Positions 52,916-61,929 are shown, counted from the stretch's first letter. The stretch: 64,000 nucleotides of DNA from Promethearchaeota archaeon (GCA_048938385.1 JBHLMG010000006.1:1-64000), one strand, 5' to 3'. The notes: a model not told the origin generated them from the letters alone. Translations and numbers: made by a program.

Positions 52916-53856
52916 CTAAAGTTTTGGGAGCACTTTTTTGCCAAGAATTTGCATCTGCTCAACTTCTTTGTTGTGCGGGAACATGAAAATCACATCAGAG
53001 ACGCCAAGATTTTGGAATTGCCGAAGCCGTCTAAGCATCTGAGCCGTTGTCCCCCAAAGCGCTTGATCAACTCGAGCACGATATTCTTCAGGTGCGATTT
53101 TCCGTTCTTTTGCACCTTCGATTATTGCAGTCTCCCTTTCTTGTTTTGATTTAAAGTGATTGGTCCACAAGCCCACTGAGATTCGGACATCATTCACATC
53201 CCGTCCATATTTTGTACAAAGGTCTGATAGGCGTTGTAATCTGGGCTGTAATGTCTCAGGTGTACTCATCCAAGCAATGTTGATTCCATTTCCATATTGT
53301 GCCGTTACGCGCAGCATCAGTTCTTTGCCCTGTTGTGCCCCAATCCAAATAGGCATGGACGCTGCAATGGTTTGGGATAGGAAATAACATCATTAACTTG
53401 GTAGTATTTTCCTTGGTAGGTGAATCGCTCGTTGGCCCAAATGCCCCGAATTATTTGCACCGCATCTGCTAACTGGTTAATCCGTGTTTTAGCATCGGGA
53501 AACGGATAACCGTAGGCATTGTATTCAATTTCTTTCCATCCAGCACCAATCCCAAATTCCAAACGCCCTTTTGATAACACATCTAAGGTTGCAGCCATTT
53601 TTGCAGTTAATGCAGGATTTCGATAACTCTGACAAAATACCATACTACCGACACGAATAGTAGGATTCTGTTGAGTTAATGCCACCATTAGCAACCAAGG
53701 ATCTAAAAGAACCCGATCTGTGGCGTTCTTATCCAGCATAAAATGATCGCTAAACCAAAGAGTTGAATACCCATATTTTAAAGCCATGTCAGCGATGTAG
53801 GTGATGTCTTCAAAATTATAACCAAATTGAGGTTCTATTTGAACACCAAAATTCAT
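52916..53856 (-). pseudogene. LLM-class F420-dependent oxidoreductase split by a 1-nt frameshift (pseudogene or assembly error)
   Basis: 53317..53856 runs to PKPLQRP and 52916..53356 continues MPIWIG. Minus-strand DNA reads CGT CC ATG CCT ATT TGG, one base short of R-P-M-P-I-W. Confidence 0.85.
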
Positions 53857-53970: not shown

Positions 53971-55017
53971 ATGCCCGTCAAACTAGCGGAGATCGTTTCA
54001 GAGGTTAAAGATTATTGGGGATTACGTCGAAAACAGCCAATCGGCAACCTAGTCAAGGTGTTACGAAGAGAGGGATTCAAGTGCCCCCATGTTTTATCTT
54101 CAATTGGTGAGGATTCCGCAGCAATTGATCTGGGCGGGGACAATCTCATTCTCTTGTCAACAGACGCTGTCATTCCCGAGCTAGCGCAAGCTAAACCCTA
54201 TATCGCTGGTTACGCAGCTATTTTGGTCAATGTCAACGACATTTATGCTGCTGGTGGTCGTCCGATTGTAGCTATGGTCAATATTGCCTTTACAGACCTT
54301 GAAGTGGGAGTTCAGATGATGGAGGGAATTTGCGAAGCGGGCCAGAAGTTTCGTGTTGAGGTAGTGCGGGGACATACCACACCAAACGCACCAATGAATA
54401 GCGTGAGCGCCTCGATTTGCGGGACGGTACCCCGTGATAATTATGTCAGCGCAGGCGGTGCTCGAGAAGGAGATCACCTAGTTCTTGCCATTGATCTGCA
54501 GGGCCGTGTATCACCCAACTATGAGTATGGATGGGATACCACAGCCCTCAAACAATCTGCAGAGATACTGACACGGTATGAAGCCATGCGCGTTCTATCA
54601 GACAAGAATCTTCTGAACGCGTCTAAGGATTTGAGTAATGGTGGTATCATTGGAACGATTCTCCTAATGCTAGAGTATGCTCAAAAGGGTGCAGAGATTG
54701 ATCTCGAAGCAATCCCGATTCCTAAAGGGTTGGATCTCCGCACATGGTTGAAGATGTACATTTCTACAGGATTCGTCATAGCTACGTCACAGGAGCGAGT
54801 CAACCAAGTGATTTCGATTTTTGCTGAACATAAGCTCCATGCTGCAAAAATCGGAAATGTGAATGACAGTCAGAAACTAGTTTTAACTTTTGACAAGGAT
54901 TCGATGACCATCTTTGATTTTCGTAAAGAAACCATTGTTGCACCCCCTCCTCCACCTCAGCTCAATCGAGTCTCCGCACTTGAGGAAGATCAACCCACGA
55001 GGAAAAAGAGAGCCTAG
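53971..55017 (+). CDS. AIR synthase-related protein (PurM/ThiL/SelD superfamily; methanogenesis-marker-2-like)
   Basis: GEDSAAI, VNVNDIYAAGGRP, GHT, KDLSNGGIIGT, GFV. Confidence 0.85.
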   Translation: MPVKLAEIVSEVKDYWGLRRKQPIGNLVKVLRREGFKCPHVLSSIGEDSAAIDLGGDNLILLSTDAVIPELAQAKPYIAGYAAILVNVNDIYAAGGRPIVAMVNIAFTDLEVGVQMMEGICEAGQKFRVEVVRGHTTPNAPMNSVSASICGTVPRDNYVSAGGAREGDHLVLAIDLQGRVSPNYEYGWDTTALKQSAEILTRYEAMRVLSDKNLLNASKDLSNGGIIGTILLMLEYAQKGAEIDLEAIPIPKGLDLRTWLKMYISTGFVIATSQERVNQVISIFAEHKLHAAKIGNVNDSQKLVLTFDKDSMTIFDFRKETIVAPPPPPQLNRVSALEEDQPTRKKRA

Positions 55018-55064: not shown

Positions 55065-55667
55065 GTGATTAAGATGGCAAATGAGGAAAAAGACTGGAAT
55101 GCTGAAGCTTCGAAAGTAACCAAGACCGTTCAAGATTTTGTAGAAGAGCTCGCAACGGCTGTTATGGAAGAGAGGCAACTTAGAGAGACTGCAGAAGCGC
55201 GGATAGAGGAACTCATGAAGGAGTTAGAGAGCAATAAATCCAAAGCCGAGCGGTTGCAGCGGACCGTCAATGAATTGAAAGTCTCTGCTGACGAGGGATC
55301 TAAACTCCAGACCGAAAATGAAGCCCTCCAATCTGAACTTAATGCCATCAAGACTCAGCTCGAGAAGATGTCGACTACTTACAAAGAATTAATTGCTGAA
55401 CAAGAAGCTACTATCCCTGTACAAGAGCTTCTGGCGTTATACATTGCTTTGCTCGAAGAAGTGTTCTTTGCTCAACCTCATGCCAAGACGCTCTTTCTGT
55501 TGCATGGCCGAAAGAAGCAAATGACCCGTGATGAAATTATTAAGACCGCAGGTCACGAAGCCACGGCAATTCGTAAAGCCTTAGGAGATTTATCCCGAGC
55601 TAACCTCATCGATTATGATGTTGAAAAGGGAAACGCTCAATTGAAGAAGCGCCTCTATCCAACCTAG
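55065..55667 (+). CDS. Coiled-coil protein with C-terminal winged helix-turn-helix
   Basis: Heptad-rich residues about 10-115; C-terminal KTLFLLH..MTRDEIIKTAG..AIRKALGDLSRANLIDYD wHTH pattern. Confidence 0.75.
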   Translation: MIKMANEEKDWNAEASKVTKTVQDFVEELATAVMEERQLRETAEARIEELMKELESNKSKAERLQRTVNELKVSADEGSKLQTENEALQSELNAIKTQLEKMSTTYKELIAEQEATIPVQELLALYIALLEEVFFAQPHAKTLFLLHGRKKQMTRDEIIKTAGHEATAIRKALGDLSRANLIDYDVEKGNAQLKKRLYPT

Positions 55668-56674
55668 ACTTTCAAATCGGTTAGCAATTGATTGAAGCGT
55701 GGAAGAGAATGAAGATTAGCGGTTAACGAGCACAAATACCGGCTGAGCTCAGCATTAATTATTCGTTCCAAATCAGAAAGGGTTTTACTGTCAGCTGCAC
55801 GGTCAACTAGTTCACTAGCGCTACGATAGATTACTCCGACTACACGTTTTTCAATAGTAGGCGGTCCCCAATCAAAGGATCGCAGAATCCGTTTAGCCTC
55901 GTTAAGACTCAATTTCACGGAATTCGCTCTGATGGCGTTAGCAAGTTGTTCGTAAAATTCCCCTGAAATGGTGACGATTTTAGTGCTTTCACGACTAGTC
56001 AGTTCTGTCCCCATTGTTCCTCTTCGGAGGAGTTCTTGCATCAGTCCAGCACAAGGCGCCTCAGCGAGGAAGCGACGGATTAAATCAAAGAATACCTGAC
56101 TGGCAATCTGAGTGACCTTTGCGATGACTTCACTGGGTTCACTGTACCGGAAGAGTTCACGACACGCTTCAAACCAGTAGTTTGGAAGAAGGATGTGGCT
56201 TCGACTAGAATATTTATCCAGCAGTTGCTGGATAGGAGGCAGGAGCTTATTGGGATCGTTGATGGAAAGGCGTCGCTGAAATGGTTTGCCGGTTAGTTCA
56301 GCAAGGTCTTGAGTCGCCTCGATCACTAATCGCTGTGCCGCAGCGATGGGTTCTCTAACATCAGTTGTTGATACTTTGGCTTTTCGCGAGGTTGCGAGCG
56401 AATCCAAGGCAGTTTCAATTCGACCAAGGTGAGTGAGAATAACTTTGATGGTATCATCCACGAAGGATGAGCCTGAGGTTGTGTTATCGTTTCTGGTATT
56501 TCCCAGTGCTTGTTTCACTGAATCATGAACAGCGCGAACACCGTTAGCGAGTTGATTAATTTGTCTAGGGCTTAAGTCACCTTCAGCCTCTAAGGTTATC
56601 AGGGCGTGAATGAGCGTGGAGTTTACTGTGGTAAGAATGAGAATGCGTTCCAGTAATTCTTCAGCTGTTATCAT
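55664..56674 (-). CDS. Hypothetical alpha-helical protein; third gene of the tubulin-like operon
   Basis: 336 aa of amphipathic helices; starts 26 bp after the tubulin-like gene with a GGAG-rich upstream sequence. Confidence 0.75.
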   Translation of the reverse strand: MITAEELLERILILTTVNSTLIHALITLEAEGDLSPRQINQLANGVRAVHDSVKQALGNTRNDNTTSGSSFVDDTIKVILTHLGRIETALDSLATSRKAKVSTTDVREPIAAAQRLVIEATQDLAELTGKPFQRRLSINDPNKLLPPIQQLLDKYSSRSHILLPNYWFEACRELFRYSEPSEVIAKVTQIASQVFFDLIRRFLAEAPCAGLMQELLRRGTMGTELTSRESTKIVTISGEFYEQLANAIRANSVKLSLNEAKRILRSFDWGPPTIEKRVVGVIYRSASELVDRAADSKTLSDLERIINAELSRYLCSLTANLHSLPRFNQLLTDLKV

Positions 56675-56700
56675 CCTATCTCCGCTCCACGCATTTGGAG

Positions 56701-58050
56701 CTACTTAAGTTCGAGATTGAAAAGCTCAGCTACATCACGAATAGCAGCCCGTAAGACTTCTTCAGTGACACCTTTTGATTTCTTGAACCACCCGCGACGA
56801 AGAGGCGAGGGGCCTGCGTGTAAATCGACAAGTTCAGTAGCAGAGTTAATTAGGTCTTCAATTTCAGGGAGTTGGGGTAGACCAAGGAGTAATAGCAAAT
56901 CAGAGGGGTGTGATTCATCCTCGAAGGAGACAAAGCAGGGAGTGATCGCGGCACCCTTTGCAGTGTATTTTCTTAGGGCTTCTTTGATATGCGGGTCGTA
57001 TTCTGCTCGGGCAAATTCACGATTTCCAGAGAAGTTATAATAGGTAGAAGAGGCGTTTGGTTCGTTTCCGATTTCAGCGAAGCTACAGTGCTCAACGGCG
57101 TATTTGACCATTGTTTTAAGCTGGGTAGGGATGTTTCCAGCTGAGGGAATAATACTGACATCGGTGTATAGACAGGGAACGACGATAGGGTCAAGTTTAC
57201 GAGCATAGTCGGCGATGTCGGTGGTGGGAAATACTTCCTTGCCTGGTTCATTGACACCTGGACTGAGCATGTGTTCGACAAACCGCAGAGCAAGAGGATT
57301 AACGAGTTCAACGAAAGCCGATTCTTGTGCTCTAGAAACCTCATTGGCCCCATCAACGGTGGAGGGAACCATTCCTTCGATATCTGTGACTTTCGCCACA
57401 TCGATCGAGAGTTGTCGTTGGAGGAAGTCAGCAACTTCGCCCTCACGCCATGCGAGGATTCGGCGCAACATAGCCCGGTTGCTCAAAAGGCAGACCAGAT
57501 CTGCACCGCGGTCTTCAAGTTGGCCACGGAGAAGCTTGGATAAGGACCACATAGTGTTGAGAGCTTCAGAGGTTTGGTCTTTGAAAGGCAACACGGTAAA
57601 AACATAGACGAAGATTCGGCGACCTTCTTCTTCTTGGAACCGTTCTTTGAGAATCTCAATAAGGGCAGGTGAACCACCACATCCTGTTCCACCACCTGAT
57701 GAGGTGAAGATGACAAATCCAGAGACGCCTTCAAAACCAAGTTGAGTAAGTTGGCCCATTATGACATCTTTAAAGTCGTGAACATAGTTGTACCCGTCAG
57801 TGAAGTTGCCTCCACAGCCAATGTCTGAGGCACCATAAAGTAGGGTATTTTCTTTGGGAATGTCATATTTTTGACGGAGTTTCTGGATGTCCGAACGGTC
57901 GGTATTCATACAGAGGTATCCTCGGATGCGTGGGGGTAACATGCGTTCCCGTGCCTGTTTTAAGTAAGCGCCCACAAGATTACTTCCGCATTCCCCAATG
58001 CCGATTGCGAAGACTTCCGCGACTCGTGGTGCTTCATCGGATGTTTCCAT
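56701..58050 (-). CDS. Divergent tubulin/FtsZ-superfamily GTPase
   Basis: T1 GIGECGSNL, T2 NTD, T3 GCGGNFTDG, T4 SSGGGTGCG, T5 VLPF, T6 SNRAM, T7-like TTDIADY. Confidence 0.92.
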   Translation of the reverse strand: METSDEAPRVAEVFAIGIGECGSNLVGAYLKQARERMLPPRIRGYLCMNTDRSDIQKLRQKYDIPKENTLLYGASDIGCGGNFTDGYNYVHDFKDVIMGQLTQLGFEGVSGFVIFTSSGGGTGCGGSPALIEILKERFQEEEGRRIFVYVFTVLPFKDQTSEALNTMWSLSKLLRGQLEDRGADLVCLLSNRAMLRRILAWREGEVADFLQRQLSIDVAKVTDIEGMVPSTVDGANEVSRAQESAFVELVNPLALRFVEHMLSPGVNEPGKEVFPTTDIADYARKLDPIVVPCLYTDVSIIPSAGNIPTQLKTMVKYAVEHCSFAEIGNEPNASSTYYNFSGNREFARAEYDPHIKEALRKYTAKGAAITPCFVSFEDESHPSDLLLLLGLPQLPEIEDLINSATELVDLHAGPSPLRRGWFKKSKGVTEEVLRAAIRDVAELFNLELK

Positions 58051-58079
58051 GGTTTCTCATTCCTTTTTTTCATTGGCTC

Positions 58080-60809
58080 CTATTTTTTCTTAGTCGTTTT
58101 TTTGGCTGTTTGCTGGGTTGTTTGTTCTCCTTTCTTATCAGCCATTACAGCGGCTAATTCACGAGCAGCCCATGAAAGATAGCTGGCAGTATCCTCACTG
58201 GTATAGGTTTCACGAATGCGTTTCTCAATTTCATTAAGTTGTCGATTTCGTTCAGCTTTTGGTGCTGCGGGGTTGTAATCTGCAAGGAAAATTCGTAAAG
58301 CTTTATGCCATTCATCTAGCTGCTTGATCCGATCCAGCCATTGATCCTCAAGGCTCCGAATGGTGGTGAAGATGTCTATCGCTTCTGGAAGGGAGTCTAT
58401 GCTTTCTAGTTTCTCACGCATGTTCTGCAGAGTCTCTAGGGGGAATATCATTTGGCTGAATTCACGGGGTCGAGCATCATAGACCCGTTTAATAGTCGAG
58501 TAATATTCGGTGGTGTTTTCTAGTAATTGTTCAAATGCTGAGGCCGTCTTTGCCTCCATGTTGCGAAGAATGTCCAAAACGCTGTTTTGTGCTTCAATTA
58601 AAGCCATGCTTATTTCCAAGACTTCTGTGACTTGTTCTGCAGCTAACGCATCTTGAACTCGGGCTAGAAGTGTCTTTAGTTTAACAACAATTTCTGCTTG
58701 ACCATGTCGTTCGAGGAGATCGGTAACAGAGTTGAGGTTGCCCCAAACCTCGTTGGCTTTCATTCGGATATCCTTGAGTAACTTCGGTTCGGTAAGTAAC
58801 TCCCGTAATTCATCAAACCGGTCAGGGAGCTCTTCGATATTTGCAGGGAGTTTCTCTTGGAGCTTGACTGATTTTTTCACATAACTATCAGTTTTGATAC
58901 CCAGGGTGGTAGAGACATTGGTCAGTTCAGAATATGCCTTGATTTGTTCATTGAGAGTTTGGTTGAAGTATCCAACAATCCGTTTTTCGAAGAGCTCGAC
59001 AATATGATGCGCCTTACGGATGGCTTCCTCGTATGTTTCGCTTGCAGGGACAACGCCTGTTAGCTCCTGAATAGCGGCTTGCACTTCTGAGGGGATAGTT
59101 AAGTTCATGCCTAATAATTTGGAGACAGCAAGGCGGAGTTTCAAATCTAACCGGTATTTGAGGTTCTCAATGGCATCTTGGGCTTTATAGAGGGCATCAC
59201 CTTGGGCTTCTCGCGCAACCGCTTCGATTTCTTCAAAACTCGTACTGTTTCGGATTTGACCAATTGCACTTTCCAAGAACTCTTCCATGGTTTTGAAGGA
59301 TTCCCGATAAGTGGGTTTAATGACTTGAATCTCAGCTAATAGGGCATTAAGTTCGCGTTCCCAAGCTTTTCGGAAGAGATCAATGCGGTTTTCAGCGTGT
59401 TTTTGAAGTCGTGCATAAGCTTCGACGAGTTCAGGAAAGGCGATATCAGTACTTCGAACGGGGGCAGGTGCGGCGCCCATGGTTGTTTTATCTAATATTG
59501 TGGTAGCTGTTTCTGAGATGCGGGTAAGGAGAGCTTCCTGCTCGCGAATTTCAGCTAATAACTTACCGTGTTCATCAATAATCTGAGCAGCCACTTCAGA
59601 ATATATTTTCACAAGGCTATTGAGGTCGGCTTTTTGGAGTTTTTTAGAGCTTCGTGCTACAAAGCCATCAAGTTCGTCAGTGTTTGGAAGAACCTTGCGT
59701 TTTACTGCTCGTGTTAACTCATCGATAATTCGCATAGTTTCACTACGAATTGCAGTTTCCACATTGGTGTTGTAGGCTTGTAAGCGTTCATAACTTGCAA
59801 TGAGGGTTGCTAAATCAGCATCTTTAGGAACTTCTGGTGGAGGTGGCGGCAAAAAACTGGCTTCTTTCGAGATATTGGCGGTTGCTAGGGTACGGTTGAG
59901 CGTGTGAGCGAATTCGAGTAATTGGCGTCGTACCTCACTTGAGGCTTTTAGGATTTGACCGTCATATTGCTGGACTAAGCCAAGTAACGTCGTTAGGTTG
60001 GCTTCGTCTTCCAGTTGTTTAAAGATAGCATCTAACGAGGTGGAAATTGCCATTGGTACATTCAGATTGAGGCCGCGTGCTGTTTCTAAAAGGGCAAGTG
60101 AGGATTCGATACTGCTTTGGAGTTTTGCTCGAAGCGTGTCGACAACTTCGCCTCGTCGACTGGTCAGATATTCATGTTCCTTACGGAGTGTTTTACGAAT
60201 TTCGAAAAGGTCCGGAATTGTATTAAAATCTACAACATCGCGTTCAGCACTAATTGACACATCACTAGTGTCAATACCCACGAAGCGATCATATGTTTTG
60301 ATTAACGCTTTATTACGCTCAAGCATGTCATTGGCTTGCTTAAGGAGCGCTTCACGAAGTTGTTTAGAAATTCCTTCGAGGTTTGATACAAACCGGGATA
60401 TTACCGGTAAAACTACAGTAAATCCGCCTTGGGTTGAAGGGAAGGATAGCCGGTTTAAATCGCGACCTAGCTTGAGGTCAAAGGTCATGATAGTTCCCTT
60501 CAAGTCTTCAAGTTCTGTCATGTAAGTGCGCAATAGTTCGATGTGAAGACGCAAGGCTCGTTGTAAATTATCTTGAATTTTAGGGATCCCAACTTCAATT
60601 TGTTTGGCTAGTCGTCGCTTCTTCAGGCCTAACGAAAAACTGGTTTTAGCGTCCCGATCAAACCCTTCTAGTGCTAAAAGTTCCCGTCCTACATCTTCCA
60701 TAGCCGTTTCTGCTTCCGAAGGCAAAACGCCCATGATAGTTCGACATTTTACGCTAATATCTTTGAGTGTTGAATAGGATTTACGCAGCTCTGCTATCGA
60801 TGTAGTCAC
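58080..60809 (-). CDS. Large alpha-helical repeat / coiled-coil protein; first gene of the tubulin-like operon
   Basis: 909 aa, nearly all helical; no TM segment or Walker motif seen; recurring 61-80 aa module; basic C-terminal tail. Confidence 0.85.
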   Translation of the reverse strand: MTTSIAELRKSYSTLKDISVKCRTIMGVLPSEAETAMEDVGRELLALEGFDRDAKTSFSLGLKKRRLAKQIEVGIPKIQDNLQRALRLHIELLRTYMTELEDLKGTIMTFDLKLGRDLNRLSFPSTQGGFTVVLPVISRFVSNLEGISKQLREALLKQANDMLERNKALIKTYDRFVGIDTSDVSISAERDVVDFNTIPDLFEIRKTLRKEHEYLTSRRGEVVDTLRAKLQSSIESSLALLETARGLNLNVPMAISTSLDAIFKQLEDEANLTTLLGLVQQYDGQILKASSEVRRQLLEFAHTLNRTLATANISKEASFLPPPPPEVPKDADLATLIASYERLQAYNTNVETAIRSETMRIIDELTRAVKRKVLPNTDELDGFVARSSKKLQKADLNSLVKIYSEVAAQIIDEHGKLLAEIREQEALLTRISETATTILDKTTMGAAPAPVRSTDIAFPELVEAYARLQKHAENRIDLFRKAWERELNALLAEIQVIKPTYRESFKTMEEFLESAIGQIRNSTSFEEIEAVAREAQGDALYKAQDAIENLKYRLDLKLRLAVSKLLGMNLTIPSEVQAAIQELTGVVPASETYEEAIRKAHHIVELFEKRIVGYFNQTLNEQIKAYSELTNVSTTLGIKTDSYVKKSVKLQEKLPANIEELPDRFDELRELLTEPKLLKDIRMKANEVWGNLNSVTDLLERHGQAEIVVKLKTLLARVQDALAAEQVTEVLEISMALIEAQNSVLDILRNMEAKTASAFEQLLENTTEYYSTIKRVYDARPREFSQMIFPLETLQNMREKLESIDSLPEAIDIFTTIRSLEDQWLDRIKQLDEWHKALRIFLADYNPAAPKAERNRQLNEIEKRIRETYTSEDTASYLSWAARELAAVMADKKGEQTTQQTAKKTTKKK

Positions 60810-60978
60810 TTTTCAGCCCCCAGGGTAAGTGGCTTACACTCACTTCTTTAACCATTGGGAAGTGTATTCTTAACTCTTTTGAGCGGACACAGATTTCTAT
60901 TACAAGAACTAAATTAAAGTCAAAGCCCCTATTTCTCAACCTTCACCAATAATACCAAATAAAGATGGGACAACGGTT

Positions 60979-61929
60979 ATGTCTAAGCCAGATCAGAGGC
61001 AGAAGAGTTATGAGAAATTACTTCGGGCAGGATACATCGCTGCTGAAGCCCTGAGGTATACCTGTAACCTGGTAAACGCAGGTGAATTGCTATACACCAT
61101 TGCTGAAAAAGGCGAGGAGTATATCCGCAAACTTGGTGGTCAACCTGCATTTCCCATTAACCTCTCAATTGATCATCATGCAGCTCACTATACTCCTCCA
61201 CTTACCGACCCAACCGTTGTTCCTAAAAAGGCTTTAGTCAAAGTGGATTTAGGAGCTCATGTGGATGGGCACATTGCTGATAACGCCCGTACGGTCTTAG
61301 TAGGAGATGATGACGCCCTTCACAGATTAATTACAGCCGCTGAAACCGGTGTACAGGCTGCAATCCAGACCATTCGAGCAGGAATTCGAGTCTGGACAGT
61401 TTCGAAATCAATCTCTAACGCTATCCGGAAGCTTCATGCCAGTCCAATTGAAAACCTGACAGGCCATAGCATTGAACCCTTTAATCTTCATGCGGGAGTT
61501 TCCGTTCCAGCGATTACCCGTTCTCATGAACGATACACCTCACCCCGATTACAAGAGCATATGGTAATAGCCATTGAGCCCTTTACTACCTATAGCCGAA
61601 ACCCCATTGTTGATAACCTCGAAGCCGGACATATTTTTGGCTTTACTCAAACCCGGAACCCTCAGAGTTCTAAACTCCGGTCTTTATTCAGTCAAATGAA
61701 AGTAAAATTTGGTCAACTCCCCTTTGCTTCGCGATGGATGCGCGAGTTGGTCGAACCTAAAAAAATTCCATCCATTTTAAATCGCTTACAAAACGAGGGG
61801 TGTATTCATAATTATCCAATTTTAGGTCTACGAGATAAGAAGCCTATTGCCCAGGCGGAGCACACTGTAATTGTGCAACCAACTGGGTGCATTGTTACCA
61901 CTTTGCAAACCCAAATGGGAGGAAGTTGA
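60979..61929 (+). CDS. map: Type II methionine aminopeptidase
   Basis: AFPINLS..AAHYTP, KVDLGAHVDGHIAD, NLTGH, LHAG, AIEPF, AQAEHT. Confidence 0.93.
   Translation: MSKPDQRQKSYEKLLRAGYIAAEALRYTCNLVNAGELLYTIAEKGEEYIRKLGGQPAFPINLSIDHHAAHYTPPLTDPTVVPKKALVKVDLGAHVDGHIADNARTVLVGDDDALHRLITAAETGVQAAIQTIRAGIRVWTVSKSISNAIRKLHASPIENLTGHSIEPFNLHAGVSVPAITRSHERYTSPRLQEHMVIAIEPFTTYSRNPIVDNLEAGHIFGFTQTRNPQSSKLRSLFSQMKVKFGQLPFASRWMRELVEPKKIPSILNRLQNEGCIHNYPILGLRDKKPIAQAEHTVIVQPTGCIVTTLQTQMGGS

Follow-up and report, generated by a model that had tools for sequence, protein, structure and literature searches.

The window analysed here is a 64,000-nucleotide stretch of DNA from a Promethearchaeota archaeon (GCA_048938385.1 JBHLMG010000006.1:1-64000), namely contig C31 of a 2.48-Mb metagenome-assembled genome (MAG) that is about 90% complete and Hermodarchaeota-like. 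A first-pass annotation, made from the sequence alone, had singled out positions 55,065 to 60,809 as a candidate undescribed cytoskeletal module of a probable Asgard archaeon, combining a divergent tubulin/FtsZ GTPase with two helical proteins and a fourth, convergent gene. Open reading frame (ORF) calling returned the three co-oriented minus-strand genes at the heart of that proposal, which encode proteins of 909, 449 and 336 amino acids (aa), with gaps of 29 bp (58051-58079) between the first and the second and 26 bp (56675-56700) between the second and the third:

58080-60809, minus strand: gene 1, ORF of the 909-aa all-helical protein P0001, of no known family
56701-58050, minus strand: gene 2, ORF with a PF00091 match, encoding the 449-aa tubulin/FtsZ-superfamily GTPase P0002, a member of the Asg.Tub group (see below)
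55664-56674, minus strand: gene 3, ORF of the 336-aa all-helical protein P0003, of no known family

We consider it probable that this region is one polycistronic unit, in which an Asg.Tub-type GTPase and two dedicated partners work together, because the gene order and the short gaps are kept across deep Asgard lineages while the surroundings change.

P0002 matches the Pfam Tubulin domain PF00091 with 67.3 bits (cut-off 33) over residues 12-195, in keeping with its first description as a divergent tubulin/FtsZ GTPase. Three nucleotide-binding and catalytic loops could be placed on its sequence:

57979-58002, minus strand: T1 loop GIGECGSN (residues 17-24), aligning with the T1 of CetZ and FtsZ
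57676-57696, minus strand: T4 signature GGGTGCG (residues 119-125), invariant in the family alignment A1 and aligning with GGGTGSG/GGGTGTG of CetZ/FtsZ
57208-57228, minus strand: T7 loop PTTDIAD (residues 275-281), with P275, D278 and D281 invariant in A1

Residues G17, G19, E20, C21, G22 and N24 of T1 are likewise invariant in A1, and D278/D281 fall on the D-x-x-D/E positions of T7 in CetZ and FtsZ. In the tubulin/FtsZ superfamily this T7 acidic pair completes the active site of the adjoining subunit within the filament. Judged by its motifs, P0002 has the residues required for polymerisation-coupled GTP hydrolysis. Cysteines C21 (T1, GECG) and C124 (T4, GGGTGCG) are invariant across the family, whereas the T3 loop has a cysteine, C79, only in the lineage of the window, the family consensus there being GVGG; a cysteine at these positions is unusual for FtsZ and CetZ.

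All full-length relatives of P0002 (49-94% identity) are encoded in Asgard MAGs, and those nearest to it (92-94%) mostly carry the Hermodarchaeota label, in agreement with the Asgard origin assumed at first. Exhaustive searching of 1.84 billion representatives with phmmer gave just three clusters with strong full-length matches, all other matches scoring at most 51 bits and being confined to the N-terminal domain. The family already has a name: a CetZ-like group called "Asg.Tub" was defined from four sequences, with an unstable position between CetZ and tubulins and a C-terminal hidden Markov model that matched nothing (Santana-Molina, del Saz-Navarro & Devos 2023, Front Microbiol, PMC9871819). 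A homologue of P0002 in our set, P0109, is OLS26264.1, which is present in that paper's own four-sequence Asg.Tub C-terminal alignment. Since P0002 and P0109 are 50% identical over 98% of their length (E 9.5e-142), the window GTPase is an Asg.Tub member. The C-terminal motifs LSPGV, PTTD.AD and HWF.RSKG are common to P0002 and Asg.Tub, and here too the C-terminal region is unlike that of other FtsZ/tubulin families.

The same paper gives the neighbours of the Asg.Tub genes only as unknown genes, most with coiled-coil regions, and finds the genomic contexts of CetZ and CetZ-like groups to be unrelated (PMC9871819). The term Asg.Tub was not found beyond this paper in the searchable literature, and the recent Asgard cytoskeleton and structural-survey literature that we checked makes no mention of the GTPase family or its partners. 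PMC9871819 contains neither the invariant triad nor the cross-lineage homology of the partners, and gives neither the distribution family by family nor the predicted complex of the GTPase with the small protein. The description of the module as undescribed therefore fails for the GTPase family, named in 2023, but stands for the triad arrangement: as far as the searchable literature shows, the invariant three-gene module, its two partner families, which have no convincing fold relatives, and the interface predicted between GTPase and adaptor have not been reported.

Synteny, proposed in the first-pass annotation as a test of the module, was followed in 80 species-representative loci and in contigs from Heimdall-, Thor- and "Asgardarchaeia"-labelled MAGs. 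Lineage labels of the roughly 80 triad loci comprise Hermod, Thor, Borr/Sif, Heimdall/Hod and "Asgardarchaeia". On the same strand, the GTPase gene is immediately preceded by the large gene in 65 of the 69 loci that allowed the test; of the four exceptions, three are ORF-calling artefacts and one has a 513-bp gap. The small gene is found directly downstream of the GTPase gene in 77/79 loci. All-against-all clustering of the neighbourhood ORFs left only the large, GTPase and small families common to all five lineage groups. Gene order is identical on the Heimdall, Thor and "Asgardarchaeia" contigs, and homology of the partners is detected by BLASTP at the Heimdall locus (E 1e-30 for the large protein, 1e-17 for the small one) as well as at the "Asgardarchaeia" locus (E 9e-44 and 6e-19, respectively). 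Between lineages the GTPase evolves slowly (49-65% identity) and both partners fast (19-29%).

Two further observations concern the contigs used in this comparison. A gene for a small GTPase of the Arf/Ras/Roc type lies upstream of the large gene, on the same strand and after a 283-bp gap, on the "Asgardarchaeia" contig (L006:4532-5113), and another gene of this type is located 3.4 kb upstream of the large gene on the Heimdall contig (L003:102-1037). Asgard genomes carry many small GTPase genes, and this adjacency may be due to chance. One locus (L009) comes from a MAG labelled 'Candidatus Odinarchaeota archaeon H3S.115'; its GTPase is 93% identical to the Hermod-type one of the window and the label is probably misassigned.

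The GTPase was found in 114 of the 301 genomes of the phylum and is strongly family-specific, some families carrying it in 66/76, 19/21, 14/18, 5/5 and 4/4 genomes. One genus with genomes of 3-6 Mb harbours a second, diverged Asg.Tub copy (about 620 versus about 750 bits; L088:6420-11180 and L089:2560-7331). This copy has its own large-protein paralogue of about 1140 aa directly upstream (E 4e-90 and 8e-83) and no small-protein homologue downstream, and a 311-aa ORF located upstream of its large gene is unrelated to the small protein. Duplication of the GTPase and large genes as a pair, without a small homologue, suggests that the GTPase and the large protein form the functional core of the system.

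The small protein, P0003, gave nothing meaningful in Pfam, NCBIfam and PDB profile searches and no transmembrane segment was detected in it. Its structural model has a mean predicted local distance difference test score (pLDDT) of 78, exceeding 90 in the C-terminal helical domain, with a less certain N-terminal helical part. Searches for relatives of this fold returned a best E of 0.26 with Foldseek, template modelling (TM) scores of at most 0.30 in the Atlas structure search, nothing usable in the Atlas feature search and, VIA-wide, only matches of residues 1-104 to generic three-helix bundles (Z about 10). The interaction predicted with the GTPase involves the following two elements:

55667-56287, minus strand: folded C-terminal helical domain of gene 3 (residues 130-336, pLDDT >90), bearing the predicted interface
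57739-57897, minus strand: GTPase span with predicted P0003 contacts (residues 52-104) in the complex prediction, assigned to H2/S3/H3

Complex prediction for P0002 and P0003 gave values of the interface score ipSAE of 0.65, 0.69 and 0.67, compared with 0.00 in all three controls, so that an interaction among the module's products, looked for at the suggestion of the first-pass annotation, is indeed predicted for this pair. The ipSAE mark used is reached by 58/80 solved complexes and 2/110 mismatched pairs, counts that are only rough here since custom alignments were supplied. Contacts were 100% consistent across runs, with a partner pLDDT of at least 78. They involve residues 206-207, 269-287 and 332-336 of P0003, and residues 52, 55-56, 59, 66-76, 93, 95-96, 99-100 and 102-104 of the GTPase, whose assignment to H2/S3/H3 is deduced from the order of the motifs and an alignment with CetZ1. 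Conservation of P0003 is higher at the predicted interface than elsewhere (0.74 versus 0.56), with a permutation p of 1e-4, or of 0.002 within the C-domain alone. These predictions support P0003 as a direct partner of the GTPase. In tubulin, the H2/S3/H3 side is engaged in lateral contacts and lies next to the T3 gamma-phosphate sensor.

The large protein, P0001, starts at a GTG codon, as indicated by homologue N-termini that align from the GTG at 60809. An identical database protein has only 884 aa and begins at an internal ATG (M26; the difference covers window positions 60735-60809), so that the public record probably lacks the first 25 residues. Pfam, NCBIfam and PDB profile searches with P0001 gave nothing meaningful, and no transmembrane segment was detected (maximum 19-residue hydropathy 1.24). 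AlphaFold2 produced an all-helical model of 30 helices (mean pLDDT 85, predicted TM score 0.38) in which long-short-long helix units of about 106-116 aa recur; P0001 is confidently predicted to be a rod of helical bundles. The "helical repeat" label attached to it at first is borne by the predicted structure but not by the sequence, in which internal repeats are weak (hhalign probability of at most 26%). Conservation is strongest towards the end of the protein:

58170-58505, minus strand: most conserved part of gene 1 (residues 769-880), defined by invariant or near-invariant columns of alignment A2

The conserved residues of this part include W824, W834, H835, K836, Y877, L878 and W880, and make it a candidate binding site. 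The extreme C-terminus (58080-58130) forms a Lys/Thr-rich tail, …KKGEQTTQQTAKKTTKKK, which is not in the family consensus and is probably lineage-specific.

Fold comparisons of P0001 gave no significant match with Foldseek, whose best rows were axonemal/dynein chains (E 0.03), and a designed five-helix bundle as the best VIA-wide hit (Z 11.8). In the Atlas fold search, an EzrA cluster came first, with 318 residues aligned and a TM of 0.26/0.40 (0.40 by EzrA length); EzrA was also in the VIA list (4uxv, Z 7.3, root-mean-square deviation 29.7 Å), and PRC1 was among the top Foldseek rows (4l3i and 4l6y; E 0.15 and probability 0.33 for 4l3i). EzrA is a bacterial Z-ring regulator made of spectrin-like helical repeats, and PRC1/MAP65/Ase1 are eukaryotic microtubule cross-linkers with a helical rod and a spectrin-fold domain. 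As with FtsZ and EzrA, a tubulin-superfamily GTPase would here be paired with a long rod of antiparallel helical bundles. However, P0001 lacks PF06160 and an N-terminal membrane anchor, is nearly twice the size of EzrA and is encoded in an operon with its GTPase; PF06160 was not matched by any of 28 members of the large-protein family at E <= 0.05. PRC1/MAP65/Ase1 similarly provide the example of an elongated helical-bundle protein tied to a tubulin-family polymer, but the fold match is not significant, and the MAP65_ASE1 Pfam model gave no signal for P0001 or its family members. We regard the resemblance to EzrA as architectural and not as evidence of homology, and PRC1 as a weak lead only. 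A gamma-tubulin complex (GCP/Spc97-98) identity found no support for P0001: no GCP_N/GCP_C Pfam match was obtained and no GCP chain was among the listed fold matches; gamma-tubulin itself appears only as a weak match to the N-domain of the GTPase.

How might the three proteins function as a unit? From its motifs, the GTPase would form GTP-dependent protofilaments. The C-terminal domain of P0003 is predicted to dock on the H2/S3/H3 side face of the GTPase, beside the T3 loop, which would leave the longitudinal faces (nucleotide pocket and T7) free. The small protein could then decorate the side of a protofilament as an adaptor or lateral regulator, while the ~900-aa rod, having no membrane anchor of its own, may space, cross-link or organise the polymer, by analogy with EzrA for FtsZ or PRC1 for microtubules. 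Such a system would stand apart from the division machinery of FtsZ and SepF, whose genes lie elsewhere in the genome. That the GTPase forms filaments, that its partners serve as scaffold and adaptor, and that the system has any part in cell shape, division or DNA segregation is, as in the first-pass annotation, what we infer. A wider proposal, which we put forward tentatively and hold to be rather less likely than the functional unit itself, is that the triad is a third, independent Asgard tubulin-superfamily cytoskeleton beside FtsZ1/2 and the AtubAB mini-microtubules. Its polymer-forming GTPase would be regulated, in the manner of microtubule-associated proteins, by two partners of its own: an adaptor that binds to the side and a rod of ~900 aa resembling spectrin repeats, comparable with EzrA or PRC1.

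Three results weigh against the reading as a functional unit. The module was not found in other Asgard families (0/68, 0/29 and 0/11 genomes), from which it follows that it is not a general Asgard housekeeping system. On the GTPase, the residues of the predicted interface show no excess of conservation over other positions (p = 0.71), this protein being uniformly conserved. Finally, the likeness of P0001 to EzrA and PRC1 remains below significance (Foldseek E 0.15; VIA Z 7.3; TM <0.5) and has no sequence support.

The best-surviving alternative, unlikely in our judgement, is a stable heterocomplex that does not form filaments, in which the GTPase would be a nucleotide-dependent switch or a structural subunit with two helical effectors. 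Binding of the small partner is indeed predicted on the face beside the T3 gamma-phosphate sensor, the C-terminal half of the GTPase is unlike that of any polymer-forming relative, and the triad is apparently kept at one copy per gene. However, the T7 acidic pair is invariant, and the GTPase is highly conserved over its whole surface, as expected of a polymer with many interfaces.

That P0002 is an ordinary CetZ-type cell-shape protein, its neighbours being incidental or loosely related in function, appears improbable. CetZ does provide the closest solved N-terminal GTPase domain: CetZ1, CetZ and CetZ2 (PDB 4b46, 3zid and 4b45) are the nearest solved relatives, followed by gamma-tubulin, all over the N-terminal domain only, and the best score of the family profile was obtained against CetZ structures (E 1.4e-11, 47 bits). 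CetZ is also archaeal and separate from the division FtsZ, one orthologue of P0002 is auto-annotated as 'Tubulin-like protein CetZ', and the Asg.Tub group is termed CetZ-like in PMC9871819. However, P0002 has no match to CetZ_C (PF21011) at E <= 1, whereas true CetZ outgroups score 76-183 bits, and its C-terminal half, compared by hhalign, reaches 3% probability with the CetZ profile (0.1% with that of FtsZ) and matches only two uncharacterised clades in profile-profile comparison. Phylogeny, also among the tests suggested at the outset, was addressed with a quick maximum-likelihood tree of 57 rows, sampled from the nearest database relatives only. The Asg.Tub clade (Shimodaira-Hasegawa-like approximate likelihood ratio test (SH-aLRT) 99) is placed apart from the CetZ_C-positive clade (SH-aLRT 90) and outside the clade containing the genome's own FtsZ; the GTPase is nested in neither and is without their C-terminal domains. 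Incidental neighbours are, moreover, hard to reconcile with partner genes that are kept in nearly every locus over deep divergence, with all other context changing.

Nor does P0002 belong to FtsZ or to the eukaryote-type tubulins (alpha/beta/gamma, AtubAB, OdinTubulin, BtubAB). It scores 25.6 bits with the NCBIfam ftsZ model TIGR00065, against a cut-off of 295.2, and does not match FtsZ_C (PF12327) or Tubulin_C (PF03953); tubulins align with it only at residues ~51-208, with at most 30 bits. A distant sister of the GTPase family, P0192 (33% identity), was encountered on a Logan contig (L087:7001-9149), where its gene follows those of SMC and ScpA and is not accompanied by a large-protein gene. 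A 262-aa ORF overlapping the end of the P0192 gene shows a weak similarity to the small protein (hhalign 15%), exactly over residues 263-294, a stretch that includes the small protein's predicted GTPase-binding segment.

The remaining features of the locus are the convergent gene and the non-coding segments that precede the three genes of the module:

55065-55667, plus strand: convergent ORF of P0004, a 200-aa protein with a coiled coil and a probable winged helix-turn-helix (wHTH)
56675-56700, minus strand: 26-bp spacer with GGAG-type Shine-Dalgarno-like motifs before gene 3, as read from the sequence
58051-58079, minus strand: 29-bp spacer with an AGGA/GAG Shine-Dalgarno-like motif before the ATG of the GTPase gene, as read from the sequence
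60810-60978, minus strand: AT-rich 169-bp upstream intergenic spacer, common with the divergent M24 peptidase gene

As first described, the P0004 ORF overlaps the 3' end of the P0003 gene, by 4 bp. Its "coiled-coil + wHTH" label relies only on weak, sub-threshold matches, to SMC/Rad50-type coiled coils over residues 14-115 and to helix-turn-helix domains of the TFIIE_alpha/TrmB/Lrs14 type over residues 130-190. A P0004 homologue is present in convergent orientation, about 1033 bp downstream of the GTPase gene, in the window and in 13 close relatives, most of which bear a Hermodarchaeota label, and none was found beside the module in the Thor, Borr/Sif and Heimdall/Hod loci examined. P0004 is therefore not part of the core module, because it adjoins it only in these closest relatives, and its inclusion in the first-pass annotation is not upheld. 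DNA segregation of the TubZRC kind, in which a GTPase filament would move DNA with P0004 as the DNA-binding adaptor, is suggested by a convergent gene with a probable wHTH abutting the module in the window's lineage, but is very improbable in view of the restricted occurrence of P0004, the lack of any iteron or centromere-like repeat array in our searches, the absence of a TubZ-like_C (PF22453) match in P0002, and the chromosomal position of the module among housekeeping genes, with no phage or defence family matches. The likeness to TubZRC, BtubABC and AtubAB is one of organisation, tubulin-superfamily genes being found in compact operons with dedicated partners; the partners of P0002 are, however, unrelated to TubR/TubY, to BtubC or to a second tubulin, with a single tubulin-family gene in this operon and no centromere repeats.

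The 29- and 26-bp spacers are too short to hold a promoter, and the 169-bp upstream spacer is the presumed promoter region of the operon. A scan for bacterial (sigma-70) promoters and terminators gave no more than the shuffle expectation, its consensus being a bacterial one that does not apply to archaea. The runs listed as containing window DNA are sediment and mangrove metagenome DNA, and none among those listed is RNA. Flanking the module are the gene of an AIR-synthase-related protein (53971-55017) and two peptidase genes, one for an M24 enzyme of the methionine-aminopeptidase family (60979-61929) and one for an M20 enzyme, in line with the unrelated housekeeping neighbours (map and AIR-synthase-like) recognised initially. 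The sole other PF00091 match of the genome is the FtsZ-like gene on contig C23, and SepF is encoded on contig C5; the window thus contains neither a second tubulin gene nor a division cluster, as had been noted. A defence or phage/viral origin is unsupported, since PADLOC and PHROGs gave no match for P0001, P0002 and P0003; the matches of P0004 were coiled-coil noise. Elsewhere in the window, two overlapping minus-strand ORFs of 146 and 179 aa (52916-53856) possibly represent a frameshifted or split gene, the upstream one covering only the N-terminal half of a luciferase-like monooxygenase profile (positions 21-169 of 314).

Taken as a GTPase with two dedicated partners, the module is a well-conserved, lineage-restricted tubulin-like system, which its conserved triad, predicted interface and list of lineages make directly testable. 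Tubulin-superfamily polymers and their regulators are central to cell division, cell shape and DNA movement. If regulated filaments do form, the triad would be a new class of polymer-plus-partner system in the pre-eukaryotic cytoskeleton. Given its occurrence in Heimdall-/Hodarchaeota-labelled as well as Thor, Hermod and Borr/Sif MAGs, the proposal, if true, would mean that the archaeal relatives of eukaryotes already had elaborate tubulin-family polymers under the control of partner proteins.

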